Shown: positions 894 to 34,464 of the stretch, one piece after another
Numbering within the stretch: the first letter of the stretch is position 1
How the letters are laid out: the number at the start of each line of letters is the position of its first letter
Virus record (IMG/VR): IMGVR_UViG_2870464427_000004
Span: 1-42,839 of that record
Reading direction: 5' to 3' (one strand)
Length of the DNA stretch: 42,839 nt
Source of the DNA: a virus
Taxonomy: Duplodnaviria; Heunggongvirae; Uroviricota; Caudoviricetes
Notes under the pieces: model-generated
What the model was told of the DNA's origin: nothing
Seen by the model: only the letters and a program-made list of their open reading frames with translations
Databases searched by the model: none
Made by a program: the position numbers and the translations under genes

Positions 894-1448
894 TCATTTA
901 TCTCCGACCGGAAACTTCTTATACAAAGTCGATACGCCAACATCATAAATGATCGCCACATTCTGGCGATGAACTCCTGATGCAATTAGTCGCCCGGCCT
1001 GCGCCCATTGTTCTGGTGTAAGTTTGGGACGACGTCCACCAATTCGTCCCTGTGCGCGAGCAGCTTCCAGTCCAGCTTTTGTTCGTTCAACAATCAGTTC
1101 TCGTTCCATTTCAGCCAGGGCCCCCATCACATGAAAGAAAAAACGCCCCATCGGTGTGCTGGTATCAATAGCATCCGTCAGGCTGCGAAAATTAACGCCA
1201 CGTTCGCGCAACTCCTCAACCAGAATGACCAGATGCCGCATACTACGCCCCAGCCGATCCAGCTTCCAGACAACCAGAGTGTCACCTGCCGATAATGTCC
1301 TGAGCAGTTTTTTCAGTCCCGGCCTTTCGGACTTTGTACCGCTTATCTTGTCTTCAAAAATCAGCTCGCATCCTGCACAGTTCAGCGCATTACGTTGTAG
1401 ATCTGTGTTCTGGTCATTTGTTGACACACGTACATAGCCAATAAGCAT
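894..1448 (-). CDS. pin: Serine recombinase, Pin/Gin/Hin/Cin-family DNA invertase
   Basis: N-terminus MLIGYVRVSTNDQ (catalytic Ser motif), VVWKLDRLGRS, C-terminal HTH; sits adjacent to inverted-repeat-bounded tail-fibre segment. True start at ATG 1448 (ORF track extends to 1484). Confidence 0.9.
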   Translation of the reverse strand: MLIGYVRVSTNDQNTDLQRNALNCAGCELIFEDKISGTKSERPGLKKLLRTLSAGDTLVVWKLDRLGRSMRHLVILVEELRERGVNFRSLTDAIDTSTPMGRFFFHVMGALAEMERELIVERTKAGLEAARAQGRIGGRRPKLTPEQWAQAGRLIASGVHRQNVAIIYDVGVSTLYKKFPVGDK

Positions 1449-1502
1449 GGTAGATCTCCCTGACAAAAGCAGGAATGATGCCATTTGCTCGTTATTTCTG
1501 CA

Positions 1503-1528
1503 TTTTCATAAACGTTGGTTTGGGGGAA
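1503..1528 (+). promoter_or_regulatory. Left crossover site (hix/gix-like) for DNA inversion
   Basis: TTTTCATAAACG-TT-GGTTTGGGGGAA resembles 26-bp hix/gix sites (two half-sites around a central dinucleotide). Confidence 0.55.
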
Positions 1529-1594
1529 GGCTCTGCATTGCCTGTTGGTGTACCGGTTCCGTGGCCCACCGCCACACCGCCAGCAGGCTGGTTA
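1515..1594. repeat. Left inverted repeat (80 bp, perfect match to reverse complement of 3040..3119)
   Basis: Direct comparison of plus strand 1515..1594 with reverse complement of 3040..3119: identical; partial similarity continues inward. Confidence 0.9.
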
Positions 1595-2032
1595 CAGTGC
1601 AACGGAGCTACGTTCACCAAAGAACAATATCCTGTTCTGGCCAGAGTCTACCCGACCCTCCGTCTTCCCGATTTGCGCGGTGAGTTTATCCGTGGATGGG
1701 ACGACGGGCGCAAAGTTGATACAGGACGTAAGTTGCTGTCCGCACAAGGGGCAACGCTGTTAAGAACAGCAATGCTGGATTATTATAACCAGGACACTAC
1801 GGGAACCTCGGGGATAGTCGGCATGGGATTCAACAATGAAGATTCCATTACAGACCTTCGTGAGGGCAGCTTTAAAATGCCGGACGGGACAACATTCAGC
1901 GATCCTGTCATAGCAATGTCAGACAATGGTATGCAGGCTACTATTCTGACCTCTATCAGAAGCGGGTATGCGAAGGGTATCACTGTCAGACCCCGTAGCA
2001 TTGCACTTAATTACATTGTGAGGGCAGTTTAA
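1517..2032 (+). CDS. Silent alternative tail-fibre C-terminal cassette (no N-terminal constant part in this orientation)
   Basis: Translation [25 protein letters not shown]... shares the junction peptide with the expressed fibre at 2653..3474 and ends NYIVRAV; no plausible own start or promoter. Confidence 0.7.
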   Translation, partial: GLGEGSALPVGVPVPWPTATPPAGWLQCNGATFTKEQYPVLARVYPTLRLPDLRGEFIRGWDDGRKVDTGRKLLSAQGATLLRTAMLDYYNQDTTGTSGIVGMGFNNEDSITDLREGSFKMPDGTTFSDPVIAMSDNGMQATILTSIRSGYAKGITVRPRSIALNYIVRAV

Positions 2033-2646
2033 TGAGTAACACTGCAGTTCTGGATGAAAACGGTATCGCCACTGTAGCGGGCGATATCACTGTATATCAC
2101 TATGACGAGGAAACCCGGGAATACACCTCATCCTCTGTGGAGTATCTCGCCCTTGGGGTGGGTACTCCGGCACATTCGTGCGCCGATGCACCGCCGGAGG
2201 CAATTTCGGGTTACGTGGTTTGCCGGACTGCCACGCTGAACGGGTGGGAGCATGTGCCTGATCACCGCGGCGAGACGGTATACAGCACGGAGAACGGTAA
2301 CCCCGTTCTGATTACCCAACCGGGTGATTACCCGGCGGACACCACCACAAAACAGCCTGCCACACCATGGGATACCTGGAACGGTGAAGCGTGGGTAACT
2401 GATACTGAACGGCATAGAGCCGCAGAGCTGGAGACTGCCAGACTGCAACGCCAGAAACGGGTGGATCAGGCGATGAAGTCCATCGACCTCATCAACCTCA
2501 AACTGCGGGCAGGTCGCAGTCTGAAACCAGAAGAAACGGCAAAACTGAACGCCGTGCTGGATTATATCGACGAGCTGAACGCACTGGATATCAGCAAGGC
2601 ACCTGAAATCAGCTGGCCGGAAGCGCCACTGGCGCTTGCCGGCTGA
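2032..2646 (+). CDS. Tail fibre assembly protein (Tfa / Mu U-like chaperone), coupled to the silent cassette
   Basis: 204 aa, start overlaps cassette stop (TAATG); typical Tfa-like sequence with conserved C-terminal region. Confidence 0.8.
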   Translation: MSNTAVLDENGIATVAGDITVYHYDEETREYTSSSVEYLALGVGTPAHSCADAPPEAISGYVVCRTATLNGWEHVPDHRGETVYSTENGNPVLITQPGDYPADTTTKQPATPWDTWNGEAWVTDTERHRAAELETARLQRQKRVDQAMKSIDLINLKLRAGRSLKPEETAKLNAVLDYIDELNALDISKAPEISWPEAPLALAG

Positions 2647-2652
2647 ACGGTA

Positions 2653-3474
2653 TCACGCCGCCCTCACGATATAGTTAAATGCGATATTGCGGGGGCGAGC
2701 TGATACATAAGCCCACCAGTCATATCTTTGTGCACCTTTAGAGGATGCATCAAATATCCACTTTTTGCCATTTATGACCCCCAGTTGATTAGAGGTTAAA
2801 GCGTCACCAAATCCGTATTGTGTAGAGCCGAGCGAACTGATATCTCCGGTATCATTATCATCAAAACCGGATACGATAGTCCCTTCCTGAAATGAAAGTA
2901 GCGCACGCCCGGTATCAACCTTGCGACCACCGTCCCATCCACGGATAAACTCACCGCGCAAATCGGGAAGACGGAGGGTCGGGTAGACTCTGGCCAGAAC
3001 AGGATATTGTTCTTTTGTAAAGGCGCGCCCGTCGCACTTTAACCAGCCTGCTGGCGGTGTGGCGGTGGGCCACGGAACCGGTACACCAACAGGCAATGCA
3101 GAGCCTTCCCCCAAACCAAGGTTTTCGAGAGCCGTTTCCACCGTGCCATCCGATTTGATATCACCAAACGGATTCTTGCGGCTCAGGTATTCAACAGCAA
3201 ACCCCGATCCCAGCAATTCAACAAAACCGGGCAGATCACCATTATCAAGCACATCCCGTTGCGTTTTATCACTTACAAACTGGGCCAGAGCTGCAGCAAT
3301 AAAGCTGGCCTGCCGAATAACCTTATTGACTTGCGCACTGGAGGCTTTCCCTGCTGTAAATCCAGATAAAAGCGCGGGCAACGCTTCCCATTCCTCCTGC
3401 GATATAACATTGGCATTTCGATCCGTTGCAAACGCTTTAAAGTCATTTTTCGCCATCAGAGTAATACTCCCCAT
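2653..3474 (-). CDS. Tail fibre protein (constant N-terminal part plus currently expressed variable C-terminal part)
   Basis: 273 aa; crosses the right inverted repeat; likely true start at ATG 3456 (ATGA overlap with upstream gene stop). Confidence 0.85.
3040..3119. repeat. Right inverted repeat (partner of 1515..1594) with hix-like site CTCTCGAAAACC-TT-GGTTTGGGGGAA on minus strand (3105..3132)
   Basis: Perfect reverse-complement identity with 1515..1594; left half-site closely matches the Hin hix half-site. Confidence 0.9.
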
Positions 3475-4136
3475 GCTCCTACATCAAAACCACTGATGAA
3501 TTCGTTATCCATATCAAAACCAAAAAATTTTGAGCCTTCCGATGGGGTTTCCACCGAAGGTGTTTCAATGCCACCCGCCCATACCCCGGCGGCTTTTACT
3601 GTGAGATACCCCTGTTTAATTGCCGCAATTAACTCACGCGATACATCTGAAATATCAGTATCAGGAAAGACCCAGACCGATATCGTCATGTCCTGGTTAT
3701 CGACTATCTGCATTCGCAGTCCGGATCCTGCTGTTGCCGCGTCAAGAATTGCCGGAAGCGAATCATTCCGTCCGTCCCAGTTATTAATCGCAATCTTCGC
3801 TTTAAGGATGACACGATAAGTTTCATCGCTGAGGTACATGTGTCCGGAATCAGGATCGTATGGCCCCTGCCATACACCCTGATCATATCCAAGCCCGTCG
3901 GTATCCCAGCTGAAATAGGCACCTGAAATAGGCTGGCTGACAACACGGCTACGTCCGATCCACAATCCCAGAATGTCAAGTTGCACACCAACCGCAGAGT
4001 CAAAATCAAATGCAGTAATCAGCCCTCTGGTGGCAGCCGCAACATCAATAAGCGGCCGGGTCATCAGATCAACATGTGCAAGAAATTTAGGTTTGGTGGC
4101 GTGGTAGTTCGTGATTAGTTCGGTGTATTTGCTCAT
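3456..4136 (-). CDS. Baseplate/tail protein (Mu gp48-like, putative)
   Basis: 226 aa, position between baseplate J-like gene and tail fibre; translationally coupled. Confidence 0.55.
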
Positions 4137-5332
4137 GACTCCACCGTTATAACGATATTTTCCGGGGTACAGGACGCAGATTCGTTGTATCTGATATCAA
4201 TGTTTGATGACGACAAAGCCCCCGGGGATTTCCCAATCGTCAGTTCCTGAATATCGTAATAGCGTGCATTCCCGCCACTCACCACGCCAAGATTCGCCGG
4301 TGAGTAAATGCGACTTAAAAGGACCGAATCACCAATCATCAGACTATTGATATAGTCGGAAATAGCCTGCTGGATCTGCTGCCCTATCTGTGAGGTATAA
4401 CCCGTAAAAACTTTTAATTTAATCCGGGCATAAACAGGCACATCACTGGAACGCGAAAATTTGATTACATGGGGATTGCCGTATTTATCCGGAACCGTAA
4501 CGGATGTTGTACCGTGAGTGGCTGTCCCCGGGCCTTTATTCCCTCTGATAGCCTGAGCAATATCCGTCACATCACCGCCATCCACAATTACAGCAACAGA
4601 GTGTGGCGGTAACCCGTTACCGTCCTCCGAACCATTATCGTTTTCATAGAGTTTGTGGCGGGTTACACCGGTAACATTAGAAACAGCACCATCCAGTGCT
4701 TCAAATGGGGTTATTGATGGCAACGCAACACTTTGCGACTGTCGGATACGTAACTCCGCATCAGTTTCTGCCGGAGTGCCCACAGTAGCCGCAGCAGGAT
4801 TGGTTACCGAAACCCAGCCACGGGTTGGCGTATTAATTTCAGTGATAGTTCCAGCCAGCGCCGCCACTGCACCACTGACGGAACATGTTGCGGTCACCAT
4901 CACTGTACCATCCACGCCGACCACCACTGAAGCAGGCAAACGCCATATCACATTATTACTGTCTTTCACGCTGCCATTAATGATGGTTGTTCCGGCAGTT
5001 CCTGTAAGAAGCAAATCAACCGTAGAGTTCGTCGCGCCTTTACGTGAAATACCATTTATTTTCACGTTACTGGTCAGTGCAGCCCCATAGCCGGTTGCTG
5101 GTGAAAAACAGTTGTAGACAGTTATCGCCATATTATTGGCATCATGAATCGCCAGCGCCATCAGAGCCACCATCTGACCGTCCTTACTGTCCGGTTCGAG
5201 GTAGGCATCACTACCATAAATCTGCTGAAAATAGCTAATCAGGGTGCTGAGTATCGTCTGATAATCAGGCGCACTGATCCCCTCCGCGGTTACCTTTGCA
5301 GATAAACCGAGAGAATCAAGGTTCAGAGCCAT
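4133..5332 (-). CDS. Baseplate J-like protein (Mu gp47-like)
   Basis: 399 aa, size and position typical of baseplate J family; overlapping start/stop with neighbours. Confidence 0.65.
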   Translation of the reverse strand: MALNLDSLGLSAKVTAEGISAPDYQTILSTLISYFQQIYGSDAYLEPDSKDGQMVALMALAIHDANNMAITVYNCFSPATGYGAALTSNVKINGISRKGATNSTVDLLLTGTAGTTIINGSVKDSNNVIWRLPASVVVGVDGTVMVTATCSVSGAVAALAGTITEINTPTRGWVSVTNPAAATVGTPAETDAELRIRQSQSVALPSITPFEALDGAVSNVTGVTRHKLYENDNGSEDGNGLPPHSVAVIVDGGDVTDIAQAIRGNKGPGTATHGTTSVTVPDKYGNPHVIKFSRSSDVPVYARIKLKVFTGYTSQIGQQIQQAISDYINSLMIGDSVLLSRIYSPANLGVVSGGNARYYDIQELTIGKSPGALSSSNIDIRYNESASCTPENIVITVES

Positions 5333-5685
5333 TACGCCTCCGATGTAACAGTCGTTATTCCATAAAGAGTGTCGATTTCAGCGGAAAACATGACACGTCG
5401 GGTCGTGGTATCCACCGTCGTATTGAAAGAGAGGATTGATTTAACGCCCCGCGTTTCGAGAATGCGCTTACGGATCGCCAGGTTGTAGGTTTCAGGCTTC
5501 TGCTTACCGAGTACGGACTGGATCCACGGAGTTCCCTCGGTGGTGTCGAGAAACCATTGCCCATACCACAATTCGAATCGCGTTTTTACCGCCTGCGCCA
5601 CGGCCTCCGGTGAGTTAATCAGCCAGGTGTCATCACCGCTGCCAAAGGTGTAATCGCCATCGGCGTCTTCACGTCTGTATCGCAT
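5332..5685 (-). CDS. Small baseplate protein (Mu gp46-like, putative)
   Basis: 117 aa, conserved position in baseplate cluster. Confidence 0.5.
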   Translation of the reverse strand: MRYRREDADGDYTFGSGDDTWLINSPEAVAQAVKTRFELWYGQWFLDTTEGTPWIQSVLGKQKPETYNLAIRKRILETRGVKSILSFNTTVDTTTRRVMFSAEIDTLYGITTVTSEA

Positions 5686-6437
5686 CAGTTTACTCCGTCG
5701 GTATTGCTTCCACCGCGCTGAACACCACCATGAGTGTGCGTATCATCGATTGGCTTGCCGTTAGCCTTCACGCTACCCAAAAACTCAACAGCACCAGTGA
5801 TTTTTGAAGCCACACCAGAAACAACAGCCCCCACCATGCCACCCATCCAGGTTAACAGTCCATGAATGGTTACTTTCTCAGAAAAATCAGCCAGAGGGGC
5901 AACCACATCAAGACCACCCGGAGCGACAATTTTAATTTTCCTGGTATCAGGATTAAGCTCAAAATAGGTGCTGCCGTCATCACTACGCAACTGTGTGGCA
6001 CTGGTATTAATACCGCTAATCTTCCTTGCCTGCGACTGGGGACCGACAATACAAAACGCATCCGATAAATCATGCATTCTGTCATCGACCGGCTCCTGTA
6101 TCCCGCCGCTCTGCCACCAGAAATCAATACAACGATCGGCAAAAATCACCAAACATTCATCACCGGCTTTAACTGGGAACGTTAGCGTGCATCCTCCGCC
6201 GCGCGGGAATACCACTGGCACATCCACCAGCAATGGGTAATTTTTGGTAATGCGCTTGCCGTCATTATCCTTTTCAACCGAACGGATAGCAGGCTGCACA
6301 ACTGCCGTCACCGCATCAGGATCGAATGACTGAATAATGCCAGGCAAGGCGACACGGATCTGGTTCTTTGTTGTTTCCCTTTCAGATTTGAATGTTTCGG
6401 CAAGGTCGCCGCTGCGGGTCTGGTCAGATACTGCCAT
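5685..6437 (-). CDS. Baseplate assembly protein (Mu gp45 / V-like, putative)
   Basis: 250 aa, within baseplate cluster; coupled to downstream gene. Confidence 0.5.
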   Translation of the reverse strand: MAVSDQTRSGDLAETFKSERETTKNQIRVALPGIIQSFDPDAVTAVVQPAIRSVEKDNDGKRITKNYPLLVDVPVVFPRGGGCTLTFPVKAGDECLVIFADRCIDFWWQSGGIQEPVDDRMHDLSDAFCIVGPQSQARKISGINTSATQLRSDDGSTYFELNPDTRKIKIVAPGGLDVVAPLADFSEKVTIHGLLTWMGGMVGAVVSGVASKITGAVEFLGSVKANGKPIDDTHTHGGVQRGGSNTDGVN

Positions 6438-6453
6438 TTAGTAGGCTCCAGAA

Positions 6454-6480
6454 AGCAAAAAACCCGCCATCCGGCGGGTT
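6454..6480 (-). terminator. Rho-independent terminator downstream of lipoprotein gene
   Basis: Minus strand: acccgcc-ggat-ggcgggt stem-loop followed by TTTTTTG. Confidence 0.65.
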
Positions 6481-6502
6481 TTATGTGACTAATTTGATCT
6501 TT

Positions 6503-7228
6503 TCAGTTTATAAGCCCCATCTTACCGGCGCTTCGATAGTTAATTACATCGCCTGAAGAGCCGCAAGGCACAGCTACAGTCGACATTTTGACAAATCCTT
6601 TACCGCCCTGCTTTTGGCATAAAGTGGCATGCATTTTTGCTAAACGCGCAGCATGACCAAAATCAATTTTGGTTCCGTAAGTTGAATCTCGTAGAGCTGC
6701 TTTTTTTGCAATTCCGGTAATATTTTTGTCTTTAATTACAGATGCAAACAAACTCAAATCATTTCCAATTTGATTGAAGCAAGTACGATTAATATCAACA
6801 TCGGCATACGCTGAAATGCGTTTGCAATCTGCGATCTGAGAAAGCACAGATGTGTTAACCAGTTGCAAATTTAATTTGTAGTCACCGACATAGGTATAAA
6901 CTTTGTTAGGGTCCGTGGTTCCCGGATAACGAGTTACGAATGGAATGCTGTTGTACGCATCTCGCAAAGATTCTGCACCCTTACTTGTAAGCTCGTTCCC
7001 AACACCATCAACGATAACCTCTGGATGTGAAACTTCAAATTGAGACTTTTCTTCGCGCTGTATTTGAAGCCTGCTTTTCTGGCTCTCCTCAACTTGCTTA
7101 TCGTACGCTTGTTTTTCTTCATTTTTTTGGGATAGCCATTTTTCCTGAGCTTTAGCACCATTAGGATCCCAACTACATGAAGTTAAAAAAAGAGAAAATA
7201 CGATTGTGGTTATCGCAAGCCTGCTCAC
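6503..7228 (-). CDS. Lipoprotein (accessory gene inserted in baseplate operon)
   Basis: 241 aa; signal peptide with lipobox LTSC; AT-rich by eye relative to neighbours; own terminator. Confidence 0.75.
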   Translation of the reverse strand: MSRLAITTIVFSLFLTSCSWDPNGAKAQEKWLSQKNEEKQAYDKQVEESQKSRLQIQREEKSQFEVSHPEVIVDGVGNELTSKGAESLRDAYNSIPFVTRYPGTTDPNKVYTYVGDYKLNLQLVNTSVLSQIADCKRISAYADVDINRTCFNQIGNDLSLFASVIKDKNITGIAKKAALRDSTYGTKIDFGHAARLAKMHATLCQKQGGKGFVKMSTVAVPCGSSGDVINYRSAGKMGLIN

Positions 7229-7230
7229 TA

Positions 7231-8295
7231 TTATGCACCTCGATTCATCGCTGACTGGCTAGGAATATCACTAGCACCTCGAGCAAAGCACATCATATCC
7301 ATGTACCACGCCTGGCCCCTTGTGTCGCCAGTGTACATAATCCCGCGCACAATATAAACGCCATCCGTTGCGATGCTGGCAGGCTGCGATATGGTGCCGC
7401 TTAGCGTAATATTTCCGTCCGTGTTCTGGTCGGTGATCTGCCCACCAGCCATAGCGATATCGTTGTTCGACAACGCGGTGCGATATACGGAAGCCTGATC
7501 CAGTTGAATGAGCCCATTAACCCGGATGTTCGGATTAATAAGCGCGCGGACGTTTACGCCGTTGCCGATGGTCTGCTGCGGCATGCCAATAAGCCCGGTA
7601 GCGCTGTTGAGCACAATCGCTTCGTGAACATATTCATTATTCACCACCATCTGGCGCTGACCATCCACGAATTGCCATGTTGCGCCACATTGCCCGGCTA
7701 CGTTATCCATTAGATGTCGCGTCATGCCAAAGAGCACCCGCCCCCGGGGGAATACAGTAGCAGGCATTTCAGGCGTCAGGCCTTCGGTCGCACCTTTGGC
7801 TTCGAAGTCTTTCATCAGCGCACGGTTCACATCAGCGACCGTGTAACCGGCAGCCAGCGTCTGTGAGGTTATACTGGTGGCAAAAGCCAGATCAGTATCT
7901 GCTGCCTGAATCAGGACGTAGGAATCAACCGGGCTGTCTTTTCCTGTGACCGAGTAGCGAATTTCACCGCTGAAAATCAGTCCGTAGTTGCGGCCATCAC
8001 TCTGGCCCACGTCCGCCGCATCAACCTCCCGCACGGTCCCGACATCGCTTGCCGACACCTCCGGCGCGATACCGTCGTAACCCGCAATCAGACGCACTTT
8101 CGAAAACTCCTGCCCGGTAATTCGGTTCACAGTATCTGCCGAGAGGTTATAAATTTTGATAGTCCCTACCCGGGACGCGCTGCTGATGTTGAACCAGTCG
8201 ATCGTAAAGGTGACTTTGAAATCACTTAGCTCAATTCCCTGACCGTACCCGTCCACAAGCTGCAGCTCGAAATGTCTCATCCAGTTCTGTGACAT
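7231..8295 (-). CDS. Baseplate hub / tail protein (Mu gp44-like, putative)
   Basis: 354 aa, upstream of baseplate cluster, downstream of tape measure region. Confidence 0.5.
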   Translation of the reverse strand: MSQNWMRHFELQLVDGYGQGIELSDFKVTFTIDWFNISSASRVGTIKIYNLSADTVNRITGQEFSKVRLIAGYDGIAPEVSASDVGTVREVDAADVGQSDGRNYGLIFSGEIRYSVTGKDSPVDSYVLIQAADTDLAFATSITSQTLAAGYTVADVNRALMKDFEAKGATEGLTPEMPATVFPRGRVLFGMTRHLMDNVAGQCGATWQFVDGQRQMVVNNEYVHEAIVLNSATGLIGMPQQTIGNGVNVRALINPNIRVNGLIQLDQASVYRTALSNNDIAMAGGQITDQNTDGNITLSGTISQPASIATDGVYIVRGIMYTGDTRGQAWYMDMMCFARGASDIPSQSAMNRGA

Positions 8296-8297
8296 GC

Positions 8298-8600
8298 TTA
8301 CTCCGTTGATACCAGTAAATGACTGCGCCCGCCCAGGTCAGTTTTCGTGGGATAATCCTGTGTGTTGTCATCGCAGACCACCAACAGCTTAAAACCAAGT
8401 CCCATACAGGCGTACTGCGCCAGCAGGTCAGCGCCAGTGACGAGAGGTATACCGGAGATTACCGGCTCCCCTCTGTCGTTCTGCAGGTCCATAATCCAGT
8501 ACAGATCGCGCCATATGATGCTAATCCGCCAGGTGACACCACCCAGGACGATGCTGAACTGCTGGTTGTCCGCTGTCAGCGGAATTTCCTGAATTGTCAT
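8298..8600 (-). CDS. Tail protein, hypothetical
   Basis: 100 aa ORF tightly packed in tail operon. Confidence 0.45.
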   Translation of the reverse strand: MTIQEIPLTADNQQFSIVLGGVTWRISIIWRDLYWIMDLQNDRGEPVISGIPLVTGADLLAQYACMGLGFKLLVVCDDNTQDYPTKTDLGGRSHLLVSTE

Positions 8601-9187
8601 TATCCGCCTCCCAGTAATGACACCACGTTACCCGTGATGCTTTTCAGCAGTGAAGTATCTGGAGGCTTTGTGGTTTTGTTGCCGCTGTTCTGTACCGCCG
8701 ACGTGCTGGCCCCTTCCTTCATGTTGGTTTTATCAGCGACGGTGATCTGCTGTGTCCGGGAGATAAGGACCTCCCTCAGGGTGAGGACGGCGGACAGGAC
8801 GTTTTCGGTTGTCTTGTCCGTCGTCACTTCCAGCGCCCGGATCAACATGTTGCTGTACAGCCGTTTACCGGTTACCACATCGAAGGGGATACGGCTTTCC
8901 TGCAGATCCAGTAGCTCCTGATACGTCTGCTGAGGACTCAGGCCGAGCAGGCTGGTAGCCGTCAGGTTACTGGCAAAATCCAGCAATGCGCCGCCACCGG
9001 CGAAACCAACCTCCATCACCACTTCTGACGGTTTTTTATAGGCATGATCAGCGACAGCAGCCCCGACCTCTACCGGATGCTCTGTTATTTCAAGCATATC
9101 TGTATGCTTCTCTGAAATAACAACACTGGGAACAATCATTCCTATTTTTCTGCTCTGCTGATGAAAAAGTGTAGAGAGAATATCCAC
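8600..9187 (-). CDS. Tail protein, hypothetical
   Basis: 195 aa ORF immediately downstream of tape measure gene. Confidence 0.45.
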   Translation of the reverse strand: MDILSTLFHQQSRKIGMIVPSVVISEKHTDMLEITEHPVEVGAAVADHAYKKPSEVVMEVGFAGGGALLDFASNLTATSLLGLSPQQTYQELLDLQESRIPFDVVTGKRLYSNMLIRALEVTTDKTTENVLSAVLTLREVLISRTQQITVADKTNMKEGASTSAVQNSGNKTTKPPDTSLLKSITGNVVSLLGGG

Positions 9188-11175
9188 TAACCCACCCTCA
9201 CCTGATTACTTCGCATGACCTGAGCATTTGCAGACTGTTGCCGACGTGCAACCTCATTACCGACAGCGTGCGGATCTCCGCCACCGTAAATGTGGTAGGT
9301 ATTTTGCTGGTTAACCTCTGTCACTTTGCCACTAATTCCTGCCACGGCAGCCTTATTAATCAGCTCTCGGGAATAGATATTTCTTCCATTTTCATGCTGG
9401 ATAATGCTGCTCATCAATGCTGACATGGTTTGCGGATCGCTCATATTCAGGGCAGCCCGGGGATCCACTCCCAGTCGTTGCGATACAGCCCTGATATACG
9501 CAGTTGTGTTGTTATTATCAGACGCAGGTGCCCAGGTAGAGATAATTTTCTCCACACTGTTTATTCCCCGTCCGGCGTACAGCATTAACTGACGAGCAAG
9601 AGCCCGTAATCCATCAAAAGCAGTTTCAAATCTGGCAAATCGCCCGCCCGGGCGTTCAAGAGAAGCCCCTGCCTGACCAGCAAAATTAAGGTTTCCCGGA
9701 TTGTTATTCCGTTCTCCTCGTTTCGTAGCCTGTGCATATTGTTCCGGCTCATCATCACCAAACCAGCCGCGTACCGTCCGGCCCACACTGCGGGGATCGA
9801 ATCCCCAGTGCTCTTTAATCCAGTCGGCAGTACTGTTAGCGCTGTCTGTAACCATCGGCATCGCTGACGGATTTTCGCTGCCCTGATTAAGTATCTGTTT
9901 GCCGATGCTGACGGCATCAGCCCAGCGGCCATCTTTGATAGCGTTGAGCAGGTCAGCGATCATGTTCAGCATTTTGCTGAATTCGCCCATCTGGTCGATG
10001 AAGTTGCTGAAATCCCACTTCAGGGACCATGATTTGGGGTCAATATTGAGCAGTTTCGCCAGCGCTTTCACCAGGTCGTTAACGGTCGTTTTAAGGTCAC
10101 GAACCATCTTCAGCGCGGCATCGACCTCCGGTTTCCACTTGCCCCAGTCAATCAGGCTGTCGCCGCCTTCCTTCCAGGTCTGATAGTCCTCCCACAGGAG
10201 GGCAATACCCGCCGCCAGCGCGGTAATGAGGCCAATCGGCGACATCCAGAACGTACTGTTCAGAATGCGCAGCGCAATCGTCAGTGCGCCAAACAGCGAG
10301 ATCAACTCCCGCGTTTGCTTATCCAGCGATTGCCACCAGGTGATAAGGCCTGATGTCCCCTCAATCAGTCTGAAGAACAGCCGCCCGATAATATCCCCGA
10401 GCGCCAGAATGCCTTTTATGGCTTTCGTCAGGGTCTGCTCGATACGAGGGAAGTTGTCCAGGATATGGCGGCGCAGGGTGTCCAGCGAACCCGCAAGCCC
10501 CCCCGCAAGATTAGAGCCGATTTTGTCACGGGCCATGCCTGCCATCGCGCCAAACTCACGCAGGGAGGTCATAAATTTGTTGGAGCTTCTGGCCGCCTCG
10601 TCAGCATTGAAGCCGATAGCTTTCGCCATTGCGCTGTACTGCCCGGAGAAGCCACCCACACCCCGGCGCATCGCCATAAGGGTATTTTCGTCAATGCCCA
10701 GCATCTGCGCATACTGGTTAGCCCGGTAATACGGCATGCTGCTGAGTTTCTGTCCAACGCCCGTAAAAATAGCGGCCATGTCACGCATGTTACCGCTGGC
10801 ATCACGGGTCTGTACGCCCAGGCGATTCAGAAAGCCTTCTGCACCGGGATTGTTACGAATAAACCGGGAGAGGCTTTCCAGAGAAGATCGCGCAGCGTCC
10901 ACGCTGCCGCCAACCTGCGAAACCGCATAGCCAATAGACTGAATTCCCTGGACTGTCGCGCCGGTGCGCTGTGACGCCCAGTAAAGATTATCCAGGCCGG
11001 AGGCGATCTTAGCCGTGAAGGCCACCACGGACAGCGCAGCTCCTTCAACAGCCAGCCCCATTTTGATGACATTTGCAGTTGTACCGGCGAGGACAGAACC
11101 GAACTTTTTCGCTCCTGCATCATCCACACTGAAGCCAAGCGAGACGAGGAAATCTTTAATAGTTTCAGCGTTCAT
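9187..11175 (-). CDS. Tail tape measure protein
   Basis: About 660 aa, Ala/Gly-rich, internal hydrophobic segments; ATG at 11175 preceded by GGAGAGAGG RBS (ORF track start 11196 is TTG). Confidence 0.8.
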   Translation of the reverse strand: MNAETIKDFLVSLGFSVDDAGAKKFGSVLAGTTANVIKMGLAVEGAALSVVAFTAKIASGLDNLYWASQRTGATVQGIQSIGYAVSQVGGSVDAARSSLESLSRFIRNNPGAEGFLNRLGVQTRDASGNMRDMAAIFTGVGQKLSSMPYYRANQYAQMLGIDENTLMAMRRGVGGFSGQYSAMAKAIGFNADEAARSSNKFMTSLREFGAMAGMARDKIGSNLAGGLAGSLDTLRRHILDNFPRIEQTLTKAIKGILALGDIIGRLFFRLIEGTSGLITWWQSLDKQTRELISLFGALTIALRILNSTFWMSPIGLITALAAGIALLWEDYQTWKEGGDSLIDWGKWKPEVDAALKMVRDLKTTVNDLVKALAKLLNIDPKSWSLKWDFSNFIDQMGEFSKMLNMIADLLNAIKDGRWADAVSIGKQILNQGSENPSAMPMVTDSANSTADWIKEHWGFDPRSVGRTVRGWFGDDEPEQYAQATKRGERNNNPGNLNFAGQAGASLERPGGRFARFETAFDGLRALARQLMLYAGRGINSVEKIISTWAPASDNNNTTAYIRAVSQRLGVDPRAALNMSDPQTMSALMSSIIQHENGRNIYSRELINKAAVAGISGKVTEVNQQNTYHIYGGGDPHAVGNEVARRQQSANAQVMRSNQVRVG

Positions 11176-26390: not shown

Positions 26391-28655
26391 TTACAATCCA
26401 GATTGCAAAATTTCGCAAGTTTTATATATTTCGCGCAATTCCTCATTATTGAAGTCGCAATTTTTTGCAAGTATCCAGAAGCGATAACCCATTCCGTCAA
26501 TTTTTACTAAATCTGTTGGCTGCCTTTTTGTTTTTTCTCGCAATAGCTTTGTTATGTGCTTCTGGTTAATTTCTACATCCATTCCTGCTTCTGCCAGTAT
26601 TGCGTTAACAATTTGTTGATAAGTCATTGCTGGTACAGGCGGATTATCCAGGATTTCAGTAAGAGCAGCCTCCACATCGCTCTTATTGCTTTCAATCATC
26701 AGAAGGCGTTCTTTCGTCTCGGGGGCGCGCTGCCAGTTAAAGCGAGACAGGTCAACGCCCATCAGATACCAGTACACCTGGGCGATAAAGTCGCTGTCGC
26801 TTAGCGCACCGTACAGGCTGGCGTAATGCTCTTCAGTTGCGGCGAAGTCAGGGCCCCCCAGCACAGCGATACGTCGGTCTTCCTCTGGCAGCGCCAGCGC
26901 ATCAAAGTGGTTGGTGTAGAACAGAAAGCCGGTGTATATATCCATCGTTTTTTTGCTGCCATATTTGCGGTTCACTTCAAACCGTGGTTCTGTCAGCACA
27001 TCGCGGATCTTATCGTTCACCTCATACCGCTTATCGTTTTCGCGCACCTCGTCAATGGTGCATAGAAGCGTATTGTACAGATAGTCATGGAACTGGTTAT
27101 CGCACAGGATCTTCATGCGAGTACGAGCACAGTTCCACGGGCCAAGCACGCGCTCCATTAACTGGCTGACCCATCCTCTGCCCGTACCGTGTGCGGTAGC
27201 CACATGCAGAATAGAAATCGGGCATCGACGCTCCGGACGCTGAACCATCCACCCCAGACGGGCGATGAAAAACTCGCGCTGCCATACATCAGGTACCAGA
27301 TACGCCATATGATTAAGGAACGTGGACACCTTACTTGTATCCGCTGTACGTGGATGCTCAGGCATATAAAATTCGTTTATCTCAAACCGCCCGTCGAAAC
27401 GCTCGATAATACGTCCCGCACCGGGCTTATAGCCTGTCGTCTCAGCAATCTTCTTATGCCGATGCTCTATCCACCGTTTGGTTGCGGGAGTTGGTTGCCC
27501 TTTCCCTTCTGGCGGGAACTGGTAAGGCGCCATCAGGTTTTTGAACGACTTCATATCCATCATGCACTGATATGGCGGTCGGCTAAGATCACATACCTGG
27601 TCACCCTCGATGACGTAGATAAAGCGTTCCAGAAAATGAGCTGTCATATCTGTATTAATATCGGTAAATTCAGGCTTATCGCCATCTTCAGCCACCGTGA
27701 GATCTTCGAACAGGGATTGCGTATAGCCGTAGCCTTCCAGCCAGTCGGCATCAGTAAGCCCCGCATCGGTGTTGTGCATGCTTTTAAAATGTCCCTGTTC
27801 AAATCCCCCCGTCCCTTTTGGGAAATACTTAATGGATGTTTCGCTGCAACCGTTGCTGTATTCTGACTCATCCCGAAACGGTTTCAGATTGCGGGAACCA
27901 TCAGAGCTGACTGACAGAGTCCACCCGTTCGCGTCAAGCCAGTCGGCGACATCATCTGTCGCGGAAGGATCAACACAGGAAAGATCACGCTGACGTCCTG
28001 CACCTGCGGTATAGCTGTCTTTCACGGGTAAGTTATCCGCCAGACGCTGCCACAGGCTTTCGAGCTGTTCAGATGTAATTTTCAGAGGTTCGCCGGGCAA
28101 ACCGCAGTCCCACTGAATACGTTCGCCTGCCGGATGGGTACCACAAGCCACAAACTGCTGGCCCTTAGCGAGCAGCTCTATTTGTTTGTTTTCGCCTTCC
28201 AGGCGGTGACCACGTTTACGGTAGTCGCCATCAACAGCAATCAGGTACAGGCATTTATGACTGTCAGCCCGCCAGCGACGTGGCGGAAGTTCCCCCAGGC
28301 ATGACAGGATAATATTGCGTACGATCTCCTGCATCCCGGCGTCATTGATATCGCAGTCCAGAGCCACCACCCCGTCGCCAGTACGAACGCAAATACCGTA
28401 ATCGGGTTCGTTCGACCACCGGGCAAAATCGTTTTCCGTAACAACATAGTTAGCCCAGTCGGGGATACCAACAACCTTACGTTGGCCATTGTAGCGACTG
28501 GGTGTTTTGCCGAAATTATGAGACAGCTTGCTATTAGGCGACAATTCTGCACAGGGATTGGACACCACAGGTAAAAGCCTGTCTGTCATCCCCAACACCA
28601 GATCGAAGTGGAACCACTCATCAGGCGTAGCTCCCCATGGTTTGTTATCAGACAT
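26391..28655 (-). CDS. Replication protein: N-terminal archaeo-eukaryotic-type primase-polymerase domain with P4 alpha/D5-like C-terminal region
   Basis: 754 aa; VVALDCDINDAG (DxD primase motif) near N-terminus; follows cro-like gene; iterons immediately 3'. Confidence 0.75.
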   Translation of the reverse strand: MSDNKPWGATPDEWFHFDLVLGMTDRLLPVVSNPCAELSPNSKLSHNFGKTPSRYNGQRKVVGIPDWANYVVTENDFARWSNEPDYGICVRTGDGVVALDCDINDAGMQEIVRNIILSCLGELPPRRWRADSHKCLYLIAVDGDYRKRGHRLEGENKQIELLAKGQQFVACGTHPAGERIQWDCGLPGEPLKITSEQLESLWQRLADNLPVKDSYTAGAGRQRDLSCVDPSATDDVADWLDANGWTLSVSSDGSRNLKPFRDESEYSNGCSETSIKYFPKGTGGFEQGHFKSMHNTDAGLTDADWLEGYGYTQSLFEDLTVAEDGDKPEFTDINTDMTAHFLERFIYVIEGDQVCDLSRPPYQCMMDMKSFKNLMAPYQFPPEGKGQPTPATKRWIEHRHKKIAETTGYKPGAGRIIERFDGRFEINEFYMPEHPRTADTSKVSTFLNHMAYLVPDVWQREFFIARLGWMVQRPERRCPISILHVATAHGTGRGWVSQLMERVLGPWNCARTRMKILCDNQFHDYLYNTLLCTIDEVRENDKRYEVNDKIRDVLTEPRFEVNRKYGSKKTMDIYTGFLFYTNHFDALALPEEDRRIAVLGGPDFAATEEHYASLYGALSDSDFIAQVYWYLMGVDLSRFNWQRAPETKERLLMIESNKSDVEAALTEILDNPPVPAMTYQQIVNAILAEAGMDVEINQKHITKLLREKTKRQPTDLVKIDGMGYRFWILAKNCDFNNEELREIYKTCEILQSGL

Positions 28656-28658
28656 GGG

Positions 28659-28883
28659 TTACACCTTTTGCTGCTCTGAATTTTCGCCGTTTAATAGCCA
28701 GTCAGGATCGCATTTCAGAACTTTTGCCAATTCAAGGATGAAACCGGTACGGGTAGCGCGTCCGGACTCAAGGTATTGAACAGACTGCTGGCGCATGCCA
28801 ACACTTTTAGCCAATGAAGTTTGGGTTATACCTAAGGCTTTGCGGCGCTCCTTTATACGTGAAGCAAGGGTAGAACTGGTCAT
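28659..28883 (-). CDS. Cro-like HTH transcriptional regulator (XRE family)
   Basis: HTH segment LGITQTSLAKSVGMRQQSVQYLESG; divergent from CI-like repressor; start ATG 28883 with GAGGG RBS (ORF track extends to 28946). Confidence 0.7.
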   Translation of the reverse strand: MTSSTLASRIKERRKALGITQTSLAKSVGMRQQSVQYLESGRATRTGFILELAKVLKCDPDWLLNGENSEQQKV

Positions 28884-28900
28884 TGAGTAAGCCCTCATTA

Positions 28901-28963
28901 TTACAGGTTTACTTGTAATTACCTCACAGGCAACCTTGTTTGTCAAATACAGAAGTATCTGTA
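28901..28963. promoter_or_regulatory. Operator palindromes in cI/cro intergenic region
   Basis: TTACAGGTTTACTTGTAA (28901..28918) and TACAGAAGTATCTGTA (28948..28963); candidate -35 TTGTCA / -10 TAATCA for the cI side. Confidence 0.5.
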
Positions 28964-28990
28964 ATCATCAATGACAGAAAAGGAGTCAAC

Positions 28991-29620
28991 ATGAATCTTG
29001 CCAACCGAGCTAAAAAACGCAGAACAGAACTAAACTTAACTCAGGTCGAAGTTGCGAAACGAGCAGGCATTAGCCAGCAGTCGATTGAAGCTATAGAGAA
29101 TGGGAAAACACTTAAACCACGCAATCTTCTTGCTTTAGCGTCAGCTCTTGAATGCGATCCTAAATGGCTACTTCTTGGGGGCGATGTTGTTACAGATTTC
29201 AACTACGGAGCTCGAAGGGTGCCTGTTCTAAGCTACGTACAAGCCGGGGCTTTCACAAGCGCTGAGCTACTTCGTGAAGAAGGTGATTTCGAATACATTC
29301 TCACCACGGCTGAGCTATCAGAAAGTTCATTTGCGCTACGTATACGTGGGGATTCAATGGAACCTGAATTTAAAGAGGGGGACATCGTTATAATTGACAC
29401 TGACGTATACCCTACTCCTGGTGAATTCGTTGCGGCATGTAACGGTAGCCACGAAGCAACGTTCAAAAAATACCGCCCGGTAGGGATTGGCGCTAAAGGT
29501 GAGGAAGACTTTGAACTTGTTCCATTGAATAGTGATTACCCTATTTGTCGCTCCTGGGAAAAACCAATTAAGATCATAGGGACAATGGTAGAACATCGCA
29601 TATTCCGCAGAAAAAGATAA
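28991..29620 (+). CDS. CI-like repressor (HTH plus LexA/S24 peptidase-like autocleavage domain)
   Basis: HTH LNLTQVEVAKRAGISQQSIEAIENG; C-terminal GDSMEP and FKKY Ser-Lys dyad context; start ATG 28991 with AAAGGAG RBS. Confidence 0.85.
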   Translation: MNLANRAKKRRTELNLTQVEVAKRAGISQQSIEAIENGKTLKPRNLLALASALECDPKWLLLGGDVVTDFNYGARRVPVLSYVQAGAFTSAELLREEGDFEYILTTAELSESSFALRIRGDSMEPEFKEGDIVIIDTDVYPTPGEFVAACNGSHEATFKKYRPVGIGAKGEEDFELVPLNSDYPICRSWEKPIKIIGTMVEHRIFRRKR

Positions 29621-29642
29621 TCGCATCCTGACTACTAAACAA

Positions 29643-29666
29643 AGAGGGCTTAGGCCCTCTTTTTTA
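29643..29666 (+). terminator. Rho-independent terminator after cI
   Basis: agagggc-ttag-gccctct stem followed by TTTTTT. Confidence 0.75.
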
Positions 29667-29722
29667 TTACCCGTAAAAACAAGTAATTAGGTTAATAATG
29701 CATTTTATTACCAAAATACCTG

Positions 29723-29752
29723 TTGACGCATTTACAGGTTTGCTTGTATTTT
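29723..29752 (+). promoter_or_regulatory. Candidate repressor-controlled promoter (-35 TTGACG) overlapping a second operator copy
   Basis: TTACAGGTTTGCTTGTA at 29732..29748 matches the operator at 28901..28918 at 16 of 17 positions. Confidence 0.45.
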
Positions 29753-29996
29753 TAATCGCAATAAGTAATCGCTCTTTAACAAACTGAACCGCGTGACAGG
29801 TAAGCCGCAGTACTCCTGGCAAAATGAAATGGCACCCGATGGGATCGAGGTAAGCGCCGAGTCCGTATGCGTACGGTAAGCGTAGAGGACAACACCGCGA
29901 CGAACTGATAAGTCACGCAAGTTGAAACGCCCCGACGATGGGGCGCTTAGTTCCTTTAACTCTGGGTGGCCGGAAGGGTACCCATGCTTAAAGAAA

Positions 29997-30566
29997 TTAC
30001 TGGTTGTAAGGATCGTAATCCGTGATTGCCTTCCCCGGATTTTCATCTTCAGAAGGCAGTCGGGCCTCTAAAGCATTTCGGTTGAACAGATAGGAAGCCC
30101 TACAGTACGAACAAACCATATTAACGGCTCGCCCAAGGCCTGGCTTAGTAACCAGACCTTCCGCTTGCAATATAGATTTTCTCTTTTGCTCGTAGCAATT
30201 GGGACAAATATAAACCGGAGATTGGTCAGCATCTGCAGAAAGCTTGCTGCGATAGACCAGAGTACCCCGCATAGGCTGGTAAAGTTCATAGCTCGCCGCT
30301 TCAGCGGCCCAGTTCTCTTGCTTTACTTTCTCATTTTCCAGTTCAACAATTTTCTCCTTAGCCGCAATCAGCAGCTCCTGAAGCGACATTTGCTGCATCT
30401 GAACATCCATTAGCTTATCGAGTAAGATGTGCGTCTTCTCTTTAACTGCATAGTCGACAGTCAGATTCTGAATCTCTCTTGCTGCTCCAACCGCGCTTTT
30501 AATTGCTCCTCCCACGCCGGATAACGATTCAGTTATCCGGGAAAGAATTCCTTTTTCTTCAGACAT
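29997..30566 (-). CDS. Hypothetical zinc-ribbon protein (CPNC ... CSYC) adjacent to immunity region
   Basis: 189 aa, coiled-coil N-terminal half, two CxxC pairs; convergent with cI; GAGAGAGA RBS. Confidence 0.6.
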   Translation of the reverse strand: MSEEKGILSRITESLSGVGGAIKSAVGAAREIQNLTVDYAVKEKTHILLDKLMDVQMQQMSLQELLIAAKEKIVELENEKVKQENWAAEAASYELYQPMRGTLVYRSKLSADADQSPVYICPNCYEQKRKSILQAEGLVTKPGLGRAVNMVCSYCRASYLFNRNALEARLPSEDENPGKAITDYDPYNQ

Positions 30567-30705
30567 ATCTAATCTCTCTCAAACTGTAGGGGTGAAGAGA
30601 TATTAGACGATTTCTCACTGTAGGGGTACAAGGAGAACCACCTCGCCTGATGTGGTTAAAAGCAGGCACTCGATGATATCCATGTAATTGCTGTATGTAG
30701 TCTTT

Positions 30706-30731
30706 GCCCGCCTCAAGTGACGGGCTTTTTT
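30706..30731 (+). terminator. Possible intrinsic terminator upstream of early operon
   Basis: gcccg...cgggc stem followed by TTTTTT; short stem, moderate confidence. Confidence 0.4.
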
Positions 30732-30790
30732 ATGTCTGAAAGCGCACTCGCAACAGCGTGCTCCCCGATATGAAAAAAGGAATACAACCG

Positions 30791-30940
30791 ATGAAACCTG
30801 AACACATCCATCGACTGACGGGGCGCGATGTTCTCCGTTATCGCCGTAAAAACTTCGATTTGATGACCGGTCTGGCCGTTGCCACTGCGCTCGGTCTGAT
30901 CATCACTTTCATTCTCCTTGTGGCGAGGACCACAGTATGA
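30791..30940 (+). CDS. Small membrane protein (49 aa) at head of early operon
   Basis: AGGA RBS 10 nt upstream of ATG 30791; C-terminal TM helix LAVATALGLIITFILLV; ORF track start 30758 is GTG. Confidence 0.5.
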   Translation: MKPEHIHRLTGRDVLRYRRKNFDLMTGLAVATALGLIITFILLVARTTV

Positions 30941-31839
30941 GTTTAGAAACCAGTCTCGAACTTAATAATCAACTTCTAGCACAACATAATGCGCTGCTTG
31001 AACGTCTTATCCGCACAATGGCATCAGGTATTGTTATGCATCCTGACACGATTTCACGAGTGCAGGAATGTCGGGATACAGCAACTGAAGCTGAAAACAT
31101 GTCAGCGGCAATGACACTGGATGATCTGGAGTTCAGCGACGTTATCGCACTGGCTGTTTTCTACCCGGTAGCCACCCCTATCACAGAAGACATGCTGCAA
31201 CGTGCTGTTGCCTACCGTGATGCTGAAGGCGATAAACGAGTAGTTCAGATTGATGCTCTCGACAGCGCATTACAGGGCGTCAAACGAGCCAGGGCGCTGC
31301 TTAAACCTGCTCTCCTGGACCTGTCCCGTAACATTCTTAAGTTCTGGGACGACCTGCCAACCATCGGCGAGCGACGTGCTTTTGCCGAGCAGCTACTTGA
31401 TGCACCTGCAGATGGGCGTGATGAAGTTAAGCCGAAAAAGGCCAGTAACAAAGATGGAGAACGCACGGGGCCGTTTTACGTCAAAAATGTATCCGGCACA
31501 GCAGCCAGTGAACTCCACACCTTACGCAAGTTGAACGAGATGCTTAAAAAAGGCCATATCGAGATCAACCGTGTTGAGTACCTTCAGCTGCAGGAAGAAT
31601 TTGCACGCAGAGACGCAGCAAATTCCAGCCAGAATAATGACGCCAAAGATGACCATACAATTGATTTCGCGGCACTACGCAAACAAGCTGAAGGGTTGAT
31701 CCTCCAGTTAGCAAAAGGGGGTTACCGGGCAGAAGCTATTGCAATTCTGGAAAAACAGGGAGCCAGGAAACTTGGTGAAGTAACGGATGAAAATCTCGCT
31801 GAAGTAATCACCCTGGCTGAAAAAGCACTGGAGGGTTAA
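30937..31839 (+). CDS. Hypothetical early protein
   Basis: 300 aa, translationally coupled to flanking genes. Confidence 0.55.
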
Positions 31840-31841
31840 TC

Positions 31842-33143: not shown

Positions 33144-33158
33144 TTTAAGGAAATACCC

Positions 33159-33707
33159 ATGAAACTGAAGCTGAACAATGTTCGTCTGGCCTTCCCGTCT
33201 CTGTTTGAAGCTAAAACTGTAAACGGCGAAGGCGATCCGCGTTTCTCCGCAGTATTTTTAATGTCTCCCAAACACCCACAACTGGAAGAAATCCGTAAAG
33301 CTATGAAGCAGGTAGCGAAGGAAAAATGGGGAGAGAAGTGGGAGCCCATTTATAACCAGCTGGAGAAAAAACTCAATCTGTGCCTGCATGATGGTGATGA
33401 AAAAGCAGAGTATGAAGGCTTCCCCGGTAATTTCTTCCTGAATGCTGCTAACAAAGCGCGCCCAGCTGTTCTTGATCGCGATCGTTCGCCACTTATTCAG
33501 GCTGACGGACGTCCCTATGCAGGGTGCTATGTAAACGCCGTTATCGATATCTGGGCACAGGACAATAATTTCGGTAAACGCATTAATGCCTCACTCGGCG
33601 GAGTCCAGTTCCTGCGAGACGGCGATGCATTTGCTGGCGGCGGAGTGGCAAGCGCTGACGATTTCGACGATATCAGCGAAGGTGCTGATGCTGAAGCACT
33701 AATTTAA
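33159..33707 (+). CDS. DUF2815-like phage protein (putative ssDNA-binding)
   Basis: 182 aa, acidic C-terminal tail DDFDDISEGADAEALI typical of SSB-like proteins; conserved position after the nuclease. Confidence 0.55.
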   Translation: MKLKLNNVRLAFPSLFEAKTVNGEGDPRFSAVFLMSPKHPQLEEIRKAMKQVAKEKWGEKWEPIYNQLEKKLNLCLHDGDEKAEYEGFPGNFFLNAANKARPAVLDRDRSPLIQADGRPYAGCYVNAVIDIWAQDNNFGKRINASLGGVQFLRDGDAFAGGGVASADDFDDISEGADAEALI

Positions 33708-33728
33708 AAATATTCATCCCCCAGCTAC

Positions 33729-34397: not shown

Positions 34398-34464
34398 TAT
34401 TTCTTATAACAAAGGCTGGCTTAAGAAAATAGTTATCCAAACCAGCCTACCGCAATACTAAAAA

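Follow-up and report, generated by a model that had tools for sequence, protein, structure and literature searches.

The stretch of DNA analysed here, referred to below as the window, is the whole 42,839-nt sequence of IMG/VR record IMGVR_UViG_2870464427_000004 (Caudoviricetes; positions 1 to 42,839), and our subject is a segment of this prophage that holds two alternative tips for its tail fibre together with a single gene for a fibre chaperone of the Tfa class. The prophage is a vB_EcoM-606R2/SEN34-like myovirus, and the switch sits at the end of its late tail operon. The 23.5-kb tail and head region (3500-27000) is 95.5% identical over about 80% to phages vB_EcoM-606R2, 689R2, 611R5 and 683R1, with Salmonella phage SEN34 as a more distant relative of the backbone, and the N-terminus of the fibre is 97% identical to that of the vB_EcoM-606R2 fibre. 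The late tail genes, among them those for a Baseplate_J protein (4133..5332, minus strand) and a DUF2612 protein (3456..4136, minus strand), both recognized by Pfam, run leftwards on the minus strand into the fibre gene and thus set the direction in which late transcription enters the switch.

In its present state the fibre gene occupies 2653..3456 on the minus strand and encodes 267 amino acids. Its most likely start, an ATG at 3456, shares bases with the stop codon of the upstream gene and is the one assigned by the Prokaryotic Genome Annotation Pipeline (PGAP) in strain UPEC 26-1; an in-frame ATG further upstream, at 3474, gives an open reading frame (ORF) of 273 residues. The first 113 codons (3118..3456, minus strand) form a constant N-terminus, while the following 154 codons and the stop (2653..3117, minus strand) form tip A, the tip that is now expressed. 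The tip B cassette (1517..2032, plus strand; 171 codons and a stop) lies unjoined on the opposite strand, starts at the left crossover site, consists of a collar and a variable head and lacks a proper start codon of its own within the segment. The Pfam collar domain PF07484 is found in both tips, with E values of 1.6e-15 for tip A and 1.5e-15 for tip B. Between them lies tfa (2032..2646, plus strand), encoding a TfaE-like protein of 204 residues that is assigned to Caudo_TAP (PF02413; E value 2e-26, 93 bits against a cut-off of 22) and is 59% identical to TfaE of e14. The start of tfa overlaps the stop of tip B (TAATG) and is provided with its own Shine-Dalgarno sequence and ATG. At its other end the gene converges with tip A, the two stop codons being separated by 6 bp, with no remnant of, or space for, a second chaperone gene. 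An antisense ORF at 2128..2448 (minus strand) and other small ORFs in the segment were judged spurious, on composition only.

The initial annotation of this DNA had drawn attention to perfect inverted repeats of 80 bp, each carrying a hix/gix-like crossover site. Both features are there, and the full repeat turns out to be about three times longer: its arms, at 1510..1740 (coding for the collar domain of tip B) and 2894..3124 (coding for that of tip A), are 231 nt in length and 90% complementary, and include perfect blocks of 80 bp (1515-1594 and 3040-3119) and 85 bp (1619-1703). The crossover sites are two inverted 26-bp sequences of the Gin/Hin type. The left site (1503..1528, plus strand) reads TTTTCATAAACG-TT-GGTTTGGGGGAA, with the core dinucleotide at 1515-1516, and the right site (3106..3131, plus strand) reads TTCCCCCAAACC-AA-GGTTTTCGAGAG, with its core at 3118-3119. 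Exactly two copies of the 16-bp core TTGGTTTGGGGGAAGG occur in the 42.8-kb window, inverted with respect to one another (1515-1530 on the plus strand, 3104-3119 on the minus strand), where 0.02 would be expected by chance. The sites are imperfect palindromes with matching 2-bp cores (TT/AA) and fit the consensus quoted in Table 3 of PMC4134206, and the last 21 nt of the left site are those of the experimentally used Phi2_3prime site of strain EC958 listed in the same table. Crossover falls inside the fibre ORF, at codons for Gly-Leu-Gly-Glu-Gly, and the invertible segment comprises 1517..3117 (1.6 kb).

Beside the left site is a gene for a serine DNA invertase of the Pin/Gin family (894..1448, minus strand; 184 residues), as had been noted at the outset; its start codon lies 54 bp from the site. 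Pfam detects the Resolvase (8e-52) and HTH_7 (1e-12) domains, and the protein aligns end to end with the Mu Gin structures 3UJ3 and 4M6F (for 3UJ3, E value 3e-92 over residues 1-181, approximately 80% identity). The catalytic residue Ser9 is present within MLIGYVRVSTNDQ, near-identical genomes annotate the gene as pinE, and over its 5' 430 nt the identity is about 89% with e14 pinE and about 91% with Min-type genes. From the start of the invertase gene to the left site runs a spacer (1449..1502) that contains the ribosome-binding site of the invertase and presumably its promoter, and aligns with the pinE-stfE spacer of e14. We infer that this invertase catalyses the inversion; by analogy, the switch may also depend on Fis and an enhancer.

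When 1517..3117 is inverted in silico, the result is an uninterrupted fibre of 284 residues ending in tip B, with tfa directly downstream. Both fusions are in frame, which bears out the proposed exchange of fibre C-termini between an expressed 2653..3117 and a silent 1517..2032. E. coli CUVET16-465 has a 2,111-bp stretch that is 100% identical to the computed inverted form, in a prophage whose remainder shows 99.1-99.9% identity with the window, and the tip B fusion is annotated as an intact 284-residue coding sequence followed by tfa both there and in the second of two copies in UPEC 26-1. Among 5,426 complete E. coli genomes, the tip B-tfa-tip A unit beside an invertase stands in the orientation of the window in 283 and in the opposite orientation in 293. 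The UPEC 26-1 sequence (NZ_CP016497.1) repeats its first 18.5 kb, approximately, at its end, with flanks that are 99.8% identical and only the fibre segment flipped; the two copies (2155-9805 and 5160231-5172341) have the same protein accessions from yfhH to the baseplate. This duplication is probably an untrimmed circular overlap from a culture of mixed orientation, in which case it is an artefact of the RefSeq assembly. For prophage Phi2 of EC958, PacBio reads hold both orientations of a near-identical module (PMC4134206). Of the two outcomes that the initial annotation had named as counting against a switch, an absence of inversion in populations and a decayed, out-of-frame cassette, neither was encountered: the inverted form exists in other E. 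coli genomes, and two of them carry tip B in an intact annotated coding sequence. Because the anatomy of the segment and the natural occurrence of both orientations support this reading alike, we regard it as close to certain, on sequence grounds, that the window contains an active Gin/Pin-type switch alternating two receptor-binding tips on one fibre shaft. PGAP labels intact silent cassettes of this kind as pseudogenes ('incomplete; missing N-terminus').

In the mechanism that we envisage, the invertase would pair the inverted 26-bp sites, exchange strands at the central TT/AA and flip 1517..3117, joining the constant 113-residue N-terminus to one of two tips, A (154 residues, as at present) or B (171 residues). 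In the B state the TfaE-like gene would lie directly downstream of the fibre gene and be co-transcribed with it; in the A state tfa would be antisense to late transcription. On the reading that we favour, in which tip A has no need of a phage-encoded Tfa made in cis, the switch would alternate a Tfa-assisted fibre (B) with a Tfa-independent fibre (A).

Both tips match the tip of T4 gp37 (2XGF; E value 7e-13) over residues 6-72 and again over their last 13 residues (NIAFNYIVR), and by analogy with that structure the chain would exit the collar, make a distal head and come back. Tips A and B have near-identical collars and a common C-terminal strand (NYIVRA), and differ in a head of about 70-90 residues; the differing heads presumably bind the receptor and would thus confer receptor specificity. 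The head of tip A bears the motifs GFDDNDTGD...GKKWI...YDWWAY, which are strongly conserved throughout the A-head family, and within this family the ratio of non-synonymous to synonymous substitution rates (dN/dS) is 0.08-0.2 wherever dS is unsaturated, indicating purifying selection. A protein database search with the tip A head matched nine clusters. GFDDNDTGD (window 2830-2860, tip A residues ~86-94), which is invariant in the family, resembles a DxDxDG calcium-binding loop; several Tfa-associated heads carry HxH instead (HAHG in e14 StfE, HNH in pro483), like the metal sites of T4 gp37 and gp12. That a metal-stabilized head could bear on chaperone independence is speculative. Two structural avenues were abandoned. 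An AlphaFold2 model of the tip A monomer from an eight-sequence alignment was unusable (predicted local distance difference test score 35, predicted template modelling score 0.22), and the phiTE short tail fibre 9CUY, considered as a reference for the head, has only residues 3-92 built experimentally, a range that does not cover the collar region.

In the classical Mu G, P1 C and e14 P segments each of the alternative 3' parts has a chaperone gene behind it, whereas here only tip B does. It had been claimed that tfa stands behind the silent cassette alone, and this proved correct: tfa is the sole Caudo_TAP gene of the window, in which tblastn with 12 Tfa proteins, both long (TfaE-like) and short (gpG/TfaP-like), matched only 2032..2646. 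The accompanying contrast with two-chaperone switches also stands, inasmuch as e14 and P2-like switches carry two Tfa genes; in related switches (pro483, P2 of O157:H43 T22, 500465-1, SKA5 and e14) a collar tip is followed by a TfaE-like gene of about 200 codons and the other tip by a short gpG/TfaP-like gene. We surveyed collar tips across the Enterobacterales using one genome per species (79 loci), with tips, Tfa genes and invertases annotated by purpose-built hidden Markov models, and counted a tip only if it was full-length and had at least 700 nt of downstream sequence (n = 84). A Tfa gene follows immediately downstream of 57 of these tips and is absent from that position in 27. All five of the tips with an A-like head (one from Rahnella at 80%, three from Xenorhabdus at 67-72% and one from Sodalis at 62%, over ~78 residues) are without a downstream Tfa. 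The Rahnella tip ends gene H of a P2-like cluster with the order J-I-H-sheath and no gene G, and there is no Tfa within 6 kb of it. In Sodalis, the A-like tip faces the Tfa of a gp37_trimer-type cassette beside an invertase, the same asymmetry with another partner. Further loci with two tips and one Tfa were found on one Escherichia sp. contig and in one Klebsiella record. Tip A is found fused intact to three different fibre shafts, and in no relative surveyed does the A-head family have a chaperone gene alongside. By these comparisons, the head of tip A appears to be of a functional type that has been maintained and that consistently goes without a chaperone gene.

Since all five A-like relatives in other genera lack a downstream Tfa, the comparative data lean towards chaperone independence of tip A over a supply of Tfa in trans. 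We assign a probability of roughly 0.55 to the proposition that tip A is independent of Tfa made in cis. A more far-reaching proposition, that A-family collar tips (GFDDNDTGD...GKKWI...YDWWAY) fold and trimerize without any Tfa-class chaperone while tip B needs or carries Tfa, is tentative, and we would place it a little short of even odds.

Several considerations pull the other way. In 47 non-redundant tip-Tfa pairs, the N-terminal 95 residues of Tfa were compared with the head and with the collar by Spearman correlation and Mantel test: similarity in this domain is unrelated to similarity of the head (Spearman -0.01, Mantel p 0.58) and does follow that of the collar (rho 0.42, p 0.001). North and colleagues (2019) are said to give grounds for expecting the N-terminal domain of Tfa to bind the collar and C-terminal strand, which are near-identical in tips A and B. 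T4 gp37, a structural relative of these tips, requires gp38 and gp57A. A Tfa does accompany two thirds of collar tips; a head resembling tip C, the third tip of some relatives described below, has its own Tfa in phage 606R2; and relatives without a Tfa in cis may have one elsewhere in the genome. The TfaE-like protein has the look of a generic helper of collar tips that, once produced, could serve tip A as well, and because the two tips share their collar and C-terminal strand, such an action is not barred by sequence.

The alternative that survives best is that tip A needs Tfa and receives it in trans, either from the same tfa gene, read in the A state from the invertase side by way of the pin-proximal cassette, or from another resident prophage, one generic chaperone serving all tips. 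We consider this unlikely. The co-variation of the Tfa N-domain with the collar and not the head is in its favour, as is the pairing of one head type with different Tfa types (closely related heads in SKA5 and 500465-1 have different ones). The idea that Tfa is tailored to the head of tip B had to be given up for want of any correlation between head and Tfa N-domain and cannot be used to argue against a supply in trans. Versions of the module with three or four tips keep one Tfa, which in some states lies downstream of several stacked cassettes, and tfa has its own translation signals. There is, furthermore, a possible route from the invertase side. A free ORF at 1475..2032 (plus strand) begins at an ATG outside the segment and would fuse a 14-residue leader, MMPFARYFCIFINV, to whichever tip adjoins pin. 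Its Shine-Dalgarno spacing is poor, and the leader is homologous to that of e14 stfE (MPFACYFFIFINV) and partly retained in pro483, so that a conserved ATG leader common to e14 stfE counts for this alternative. For the inverted e14 locus, the equivalent chimeric protein is claimed to block adsorption of phage T2 (phage exclusion), mostly on evidence from plasmid expression, with the phenotype also reported from the native locus (PMC12529663). If the pin-proximal cassette were transcribed, tfa would be co-transcribed with it in the A state.

A supply of Tfa in trans is nevertheless hampered, because late transcription reads tfa antisense in the A state and no promoter was found: a scan for sigma-70 consensus sequences entering the segment from the pin side gave none above shuffle expectation in the window, the Min-type locus or e14. 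The spacers of different carrier backbones are, moreover, unrelated in sequence. By eye, the Min-type spacer contains TGAGATAAT, an extended -10-like element that the window spacer is without, and we have not built on it. Nor does the window encode a second Tfa, and A-like tips elsewhere have none nearby, as in the P2-like cluster of Rahnella; reliance on unrelated prophages would be unreliable. As a separate observation, a weak terminator-like hairpin, ACGGCGTTCAGTTTTGCCGT with a T-rich tail, lies at 2536-2555 on the minus strand, antisense to tfa and ~100 nt past the stop of tip A, where it could end the late transcript in the A state. The same hairpin is present in a cassette carrier (locus L005, 5454-5473), and, lying as it does within conserved Tfa coding sequence, its conservation proves nothing.

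Decay is a second alternative. The A state would be defective, or 'off', a second chaperone having been lost so that fibres with tip A fold poorly. Two Tfa genes are indeed usual in related switches, and decayed cases exist: tip A is truncated in strain 85.0412 (NZ_CP122448.1), an A-like cassette at locus L097 has a 41-residue internal deletion in its collar and the single tfa of a two-tip Xenorhabdus locus is broken into fragments. In the window, however, the 6-bp junction is compact and contains no Tfa remnant, and the identical arrangement has been retained on three backbones in some 576 genomes. The conservation of the tip A head across genera, at a dN/dS of 0.08-0.2, and the occurrence of A-like tips as the only fibre tip in otherwise complete P2-like tail clusters speak against decay as well, and we hold this explanation to be improbable.

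Less probable still, in our estimation, is that Tfa, not mainly a chaperone, is retained by tip B as its cap or adhesin, so that a bare tip and a Tfa-decorated one would alternate. Mu Tfa has been reported to bind the fibre tip stably, and in T2-type phages gp38 is itself the adhesin, both of which count for such a role; the variation of the Tfa N-domain, too, is independent of the head, which would suit an element with a specificity of its own. Among TfaE-like proteins, however, the N-domains are 55-65% identical, a smaller divergence than would be expected of an adhesin under diversifying selection. It is very improbable that inversion has ceased in this prophage and left the repeat as a frozen relic, given an intact invertase with its catalytic serine, perfect crossover sites and near-identical prophages in both orientations, and nothing specific favours it beyond the truncation of some related invertases (EC958 Phi4; PMC4134206).

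Contrary to the rarity of asymmetric switches implied by the initial annotation, the one-Tfa cassette is present in about 10% of complete E. coli genomes (approximately 576) on three phage backbones, in versions with three and four tips besides that of the window, and inversion of its EC958 form was already known. Besides the backbone of the window, it is carried by P2-like prophages and by P1-like phage-plasmids of about 93 kb. On these carriers homology is confined to window 1021-3122: it sets in at approximately codon 143 of the invertase, the boundary between the catalytic and DNA-binding domains, and goes no further than the right crossover site. The helix-turn-helix domain and the outer half-sites vary by carrier. 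As homology ends within the invertase and at the right crossover site, the portable unit exchanged among backbones seems, from sequence comparison, to consist of the catalytic half of the invertase, the spacer and the invertible segment. Phage 606R2 shares the fibre N-terminus of the window, but its segment is e14-like and has a pair of chaperone genes. Three tips (the third being tip C), three sites and one Tfa are found in EC958 Phi2 and pF374-2; four tips and one Tfa in pCUVET20-PYO4.3 and pKY1497_2; and at least four tips with one Tfa in a Salmonella P2-like prophage. In all multi-tip versions the unit of tip B and tfa converging on tip A is invariant, so that tfa is antisense whenever tip A is the one expressed. 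Klebsiella phage KP12 clone KP12_2 (OM835952.1), filed under Vequintavirinae, contains a P2-like baseplate-fibre block, an invertase and a two-tip, one-Tfa switch; this clone may be a co-assembled prophage and not part of KP12.

Elsewhere in the prophage, the region 26391-40773 holds a module of replication and modification type, which encodes a Prim-Pol/DUF5906 protein (754 residues), a DUF2800 PD-(D/E)XK nuclease, an Enc34-type single-stranded DNA-binding protein, Nmad5 (nucleotide modification associated domain 5), a family A DNA polymerase and an SNF2-like helicase. The combination of Nmad5 with PolA hints at modified DNA bases. The integrase is at 40967-42370 (minus strand). Between the invertase and the prophage end lies apparent cargo, namely genes for a DUF2335 membrane protein (1-552) and for a small protein whose N-terminus resembles a signal peptide (MKKAFAALFVLLSLVASTQASA..., ATG at 645; 53 residues in the annotation of relatives), and a GC-rich hairpin at ~861-893 separates the cargo genes from the convergent invertase gene. 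The neighbouring host gene in related genomes is yfhH (MurR/RpiR).

As a switch, the element is an ordinary member of the textbook invertible tail fibre systems, and a near-identical module has already been seen to invert. What had previously gone unremarked is the pattern in which one generic TfaE-like chaperone accompanies modules of two to four collar tips, while heads of the tip A family always come without one. Should tip A prove chaperone-independent, it would offer a simple way of learning why some fibres need Tfa and a convenient tip for host-range engineering, and in a common family of E. coli prophages half of the lysogens would assemble their fibres by another route. On the more far-reaching proposition above, the pair of tips A and B would be a natural matched experiment in which chaperone dependence is set by a head of about 70 residues, and tip A a chaperone-free scaffold for retargeting phages and tailocins. 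There are lessons for databases as well: silent cassettes are routinely annotated as pseudogenes, and mixed orientations can duplicate the ends of 'complete' genomes.

Among known systems, T4 gp37 resembles the tips of the window in its collar domain and returning C-terminal strand (2XGF), and the Tfa family is functionally related to T4 gp38. Unlike these tips of about 150 residues with a short head, gp37 is a long needle, and the window, in turn, has no homologue of gp38 or gp57A and one tip without an adjacent chaperone gene. The G segment of Mu (Gin) and the C segment of P1 (Cin) share with the window an invertase outside the segment, a crossover inside the fibre ORF and a constant N-terminus with alternative C-termini. 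Each orientation has a chaperone of its own in Mu and P1 (Sv-U and Sv'-U'); their tips are not of the collar type and their segments measure 3-4.2 kb. The Min multiple-inversion region of plasmid p15B, studied by Sandmeier, Iida and Arber in 1990-1992, reportedly has six alternative 3' ends in 3.5 kb, too little room for one chaperone per tip. Min is similar to the multi-tip relatives of the window in providing several short 3' ends for one fibre gene, and unlike the window, with its two sites and two tips, in having more than two of each. On P1-like phage-plasmids the cassette of the window likewise takes three- and four-tip forms with a single Tfa. The invertase of a P1-like plasmid is stated to be 98.5% identical to Min (PMC6906374).

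The e14 P/PinE system has the same type of invertase, with 88.9% nucleotide identity over the 5' part of pin and the repeat, the site core TTGGTTTGGGRGAAGG, a collar tip (StfE) followed by TfaE, and a pin-proximal ATG leader. It differs in having two chaperones, tfaE and tfaP, a second tip of another fold (gp53-like) and a segment of 1,797 bp (PMC12529663). The Phi2 region of EC958 has, like the window, the tip B-tfa-tip A unit, with a Tfa that is 96.6% and a tip A that is 96% identical, the same inner half-site GGTTTGGGGGAA and nearly the same pin-side site (published as ...ATAAACGTT-GGTTTGGGGGAA). In contrast to the window, Phi2, which is P2-like, has a longer fibre shaft, a third tip (C), a third crossover site, a segment of 2,067 bp and a 190-residue invertase whose C-terminal domain and spacer are different. 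The EC958 switches were drawn as mirror-image pairs of a tip and a minor gene, the single Tfa passing unremarked (Forde et al. 2014, PMC4134206), and it is this Phi2 region that is the nearest described relative of the element in the window.

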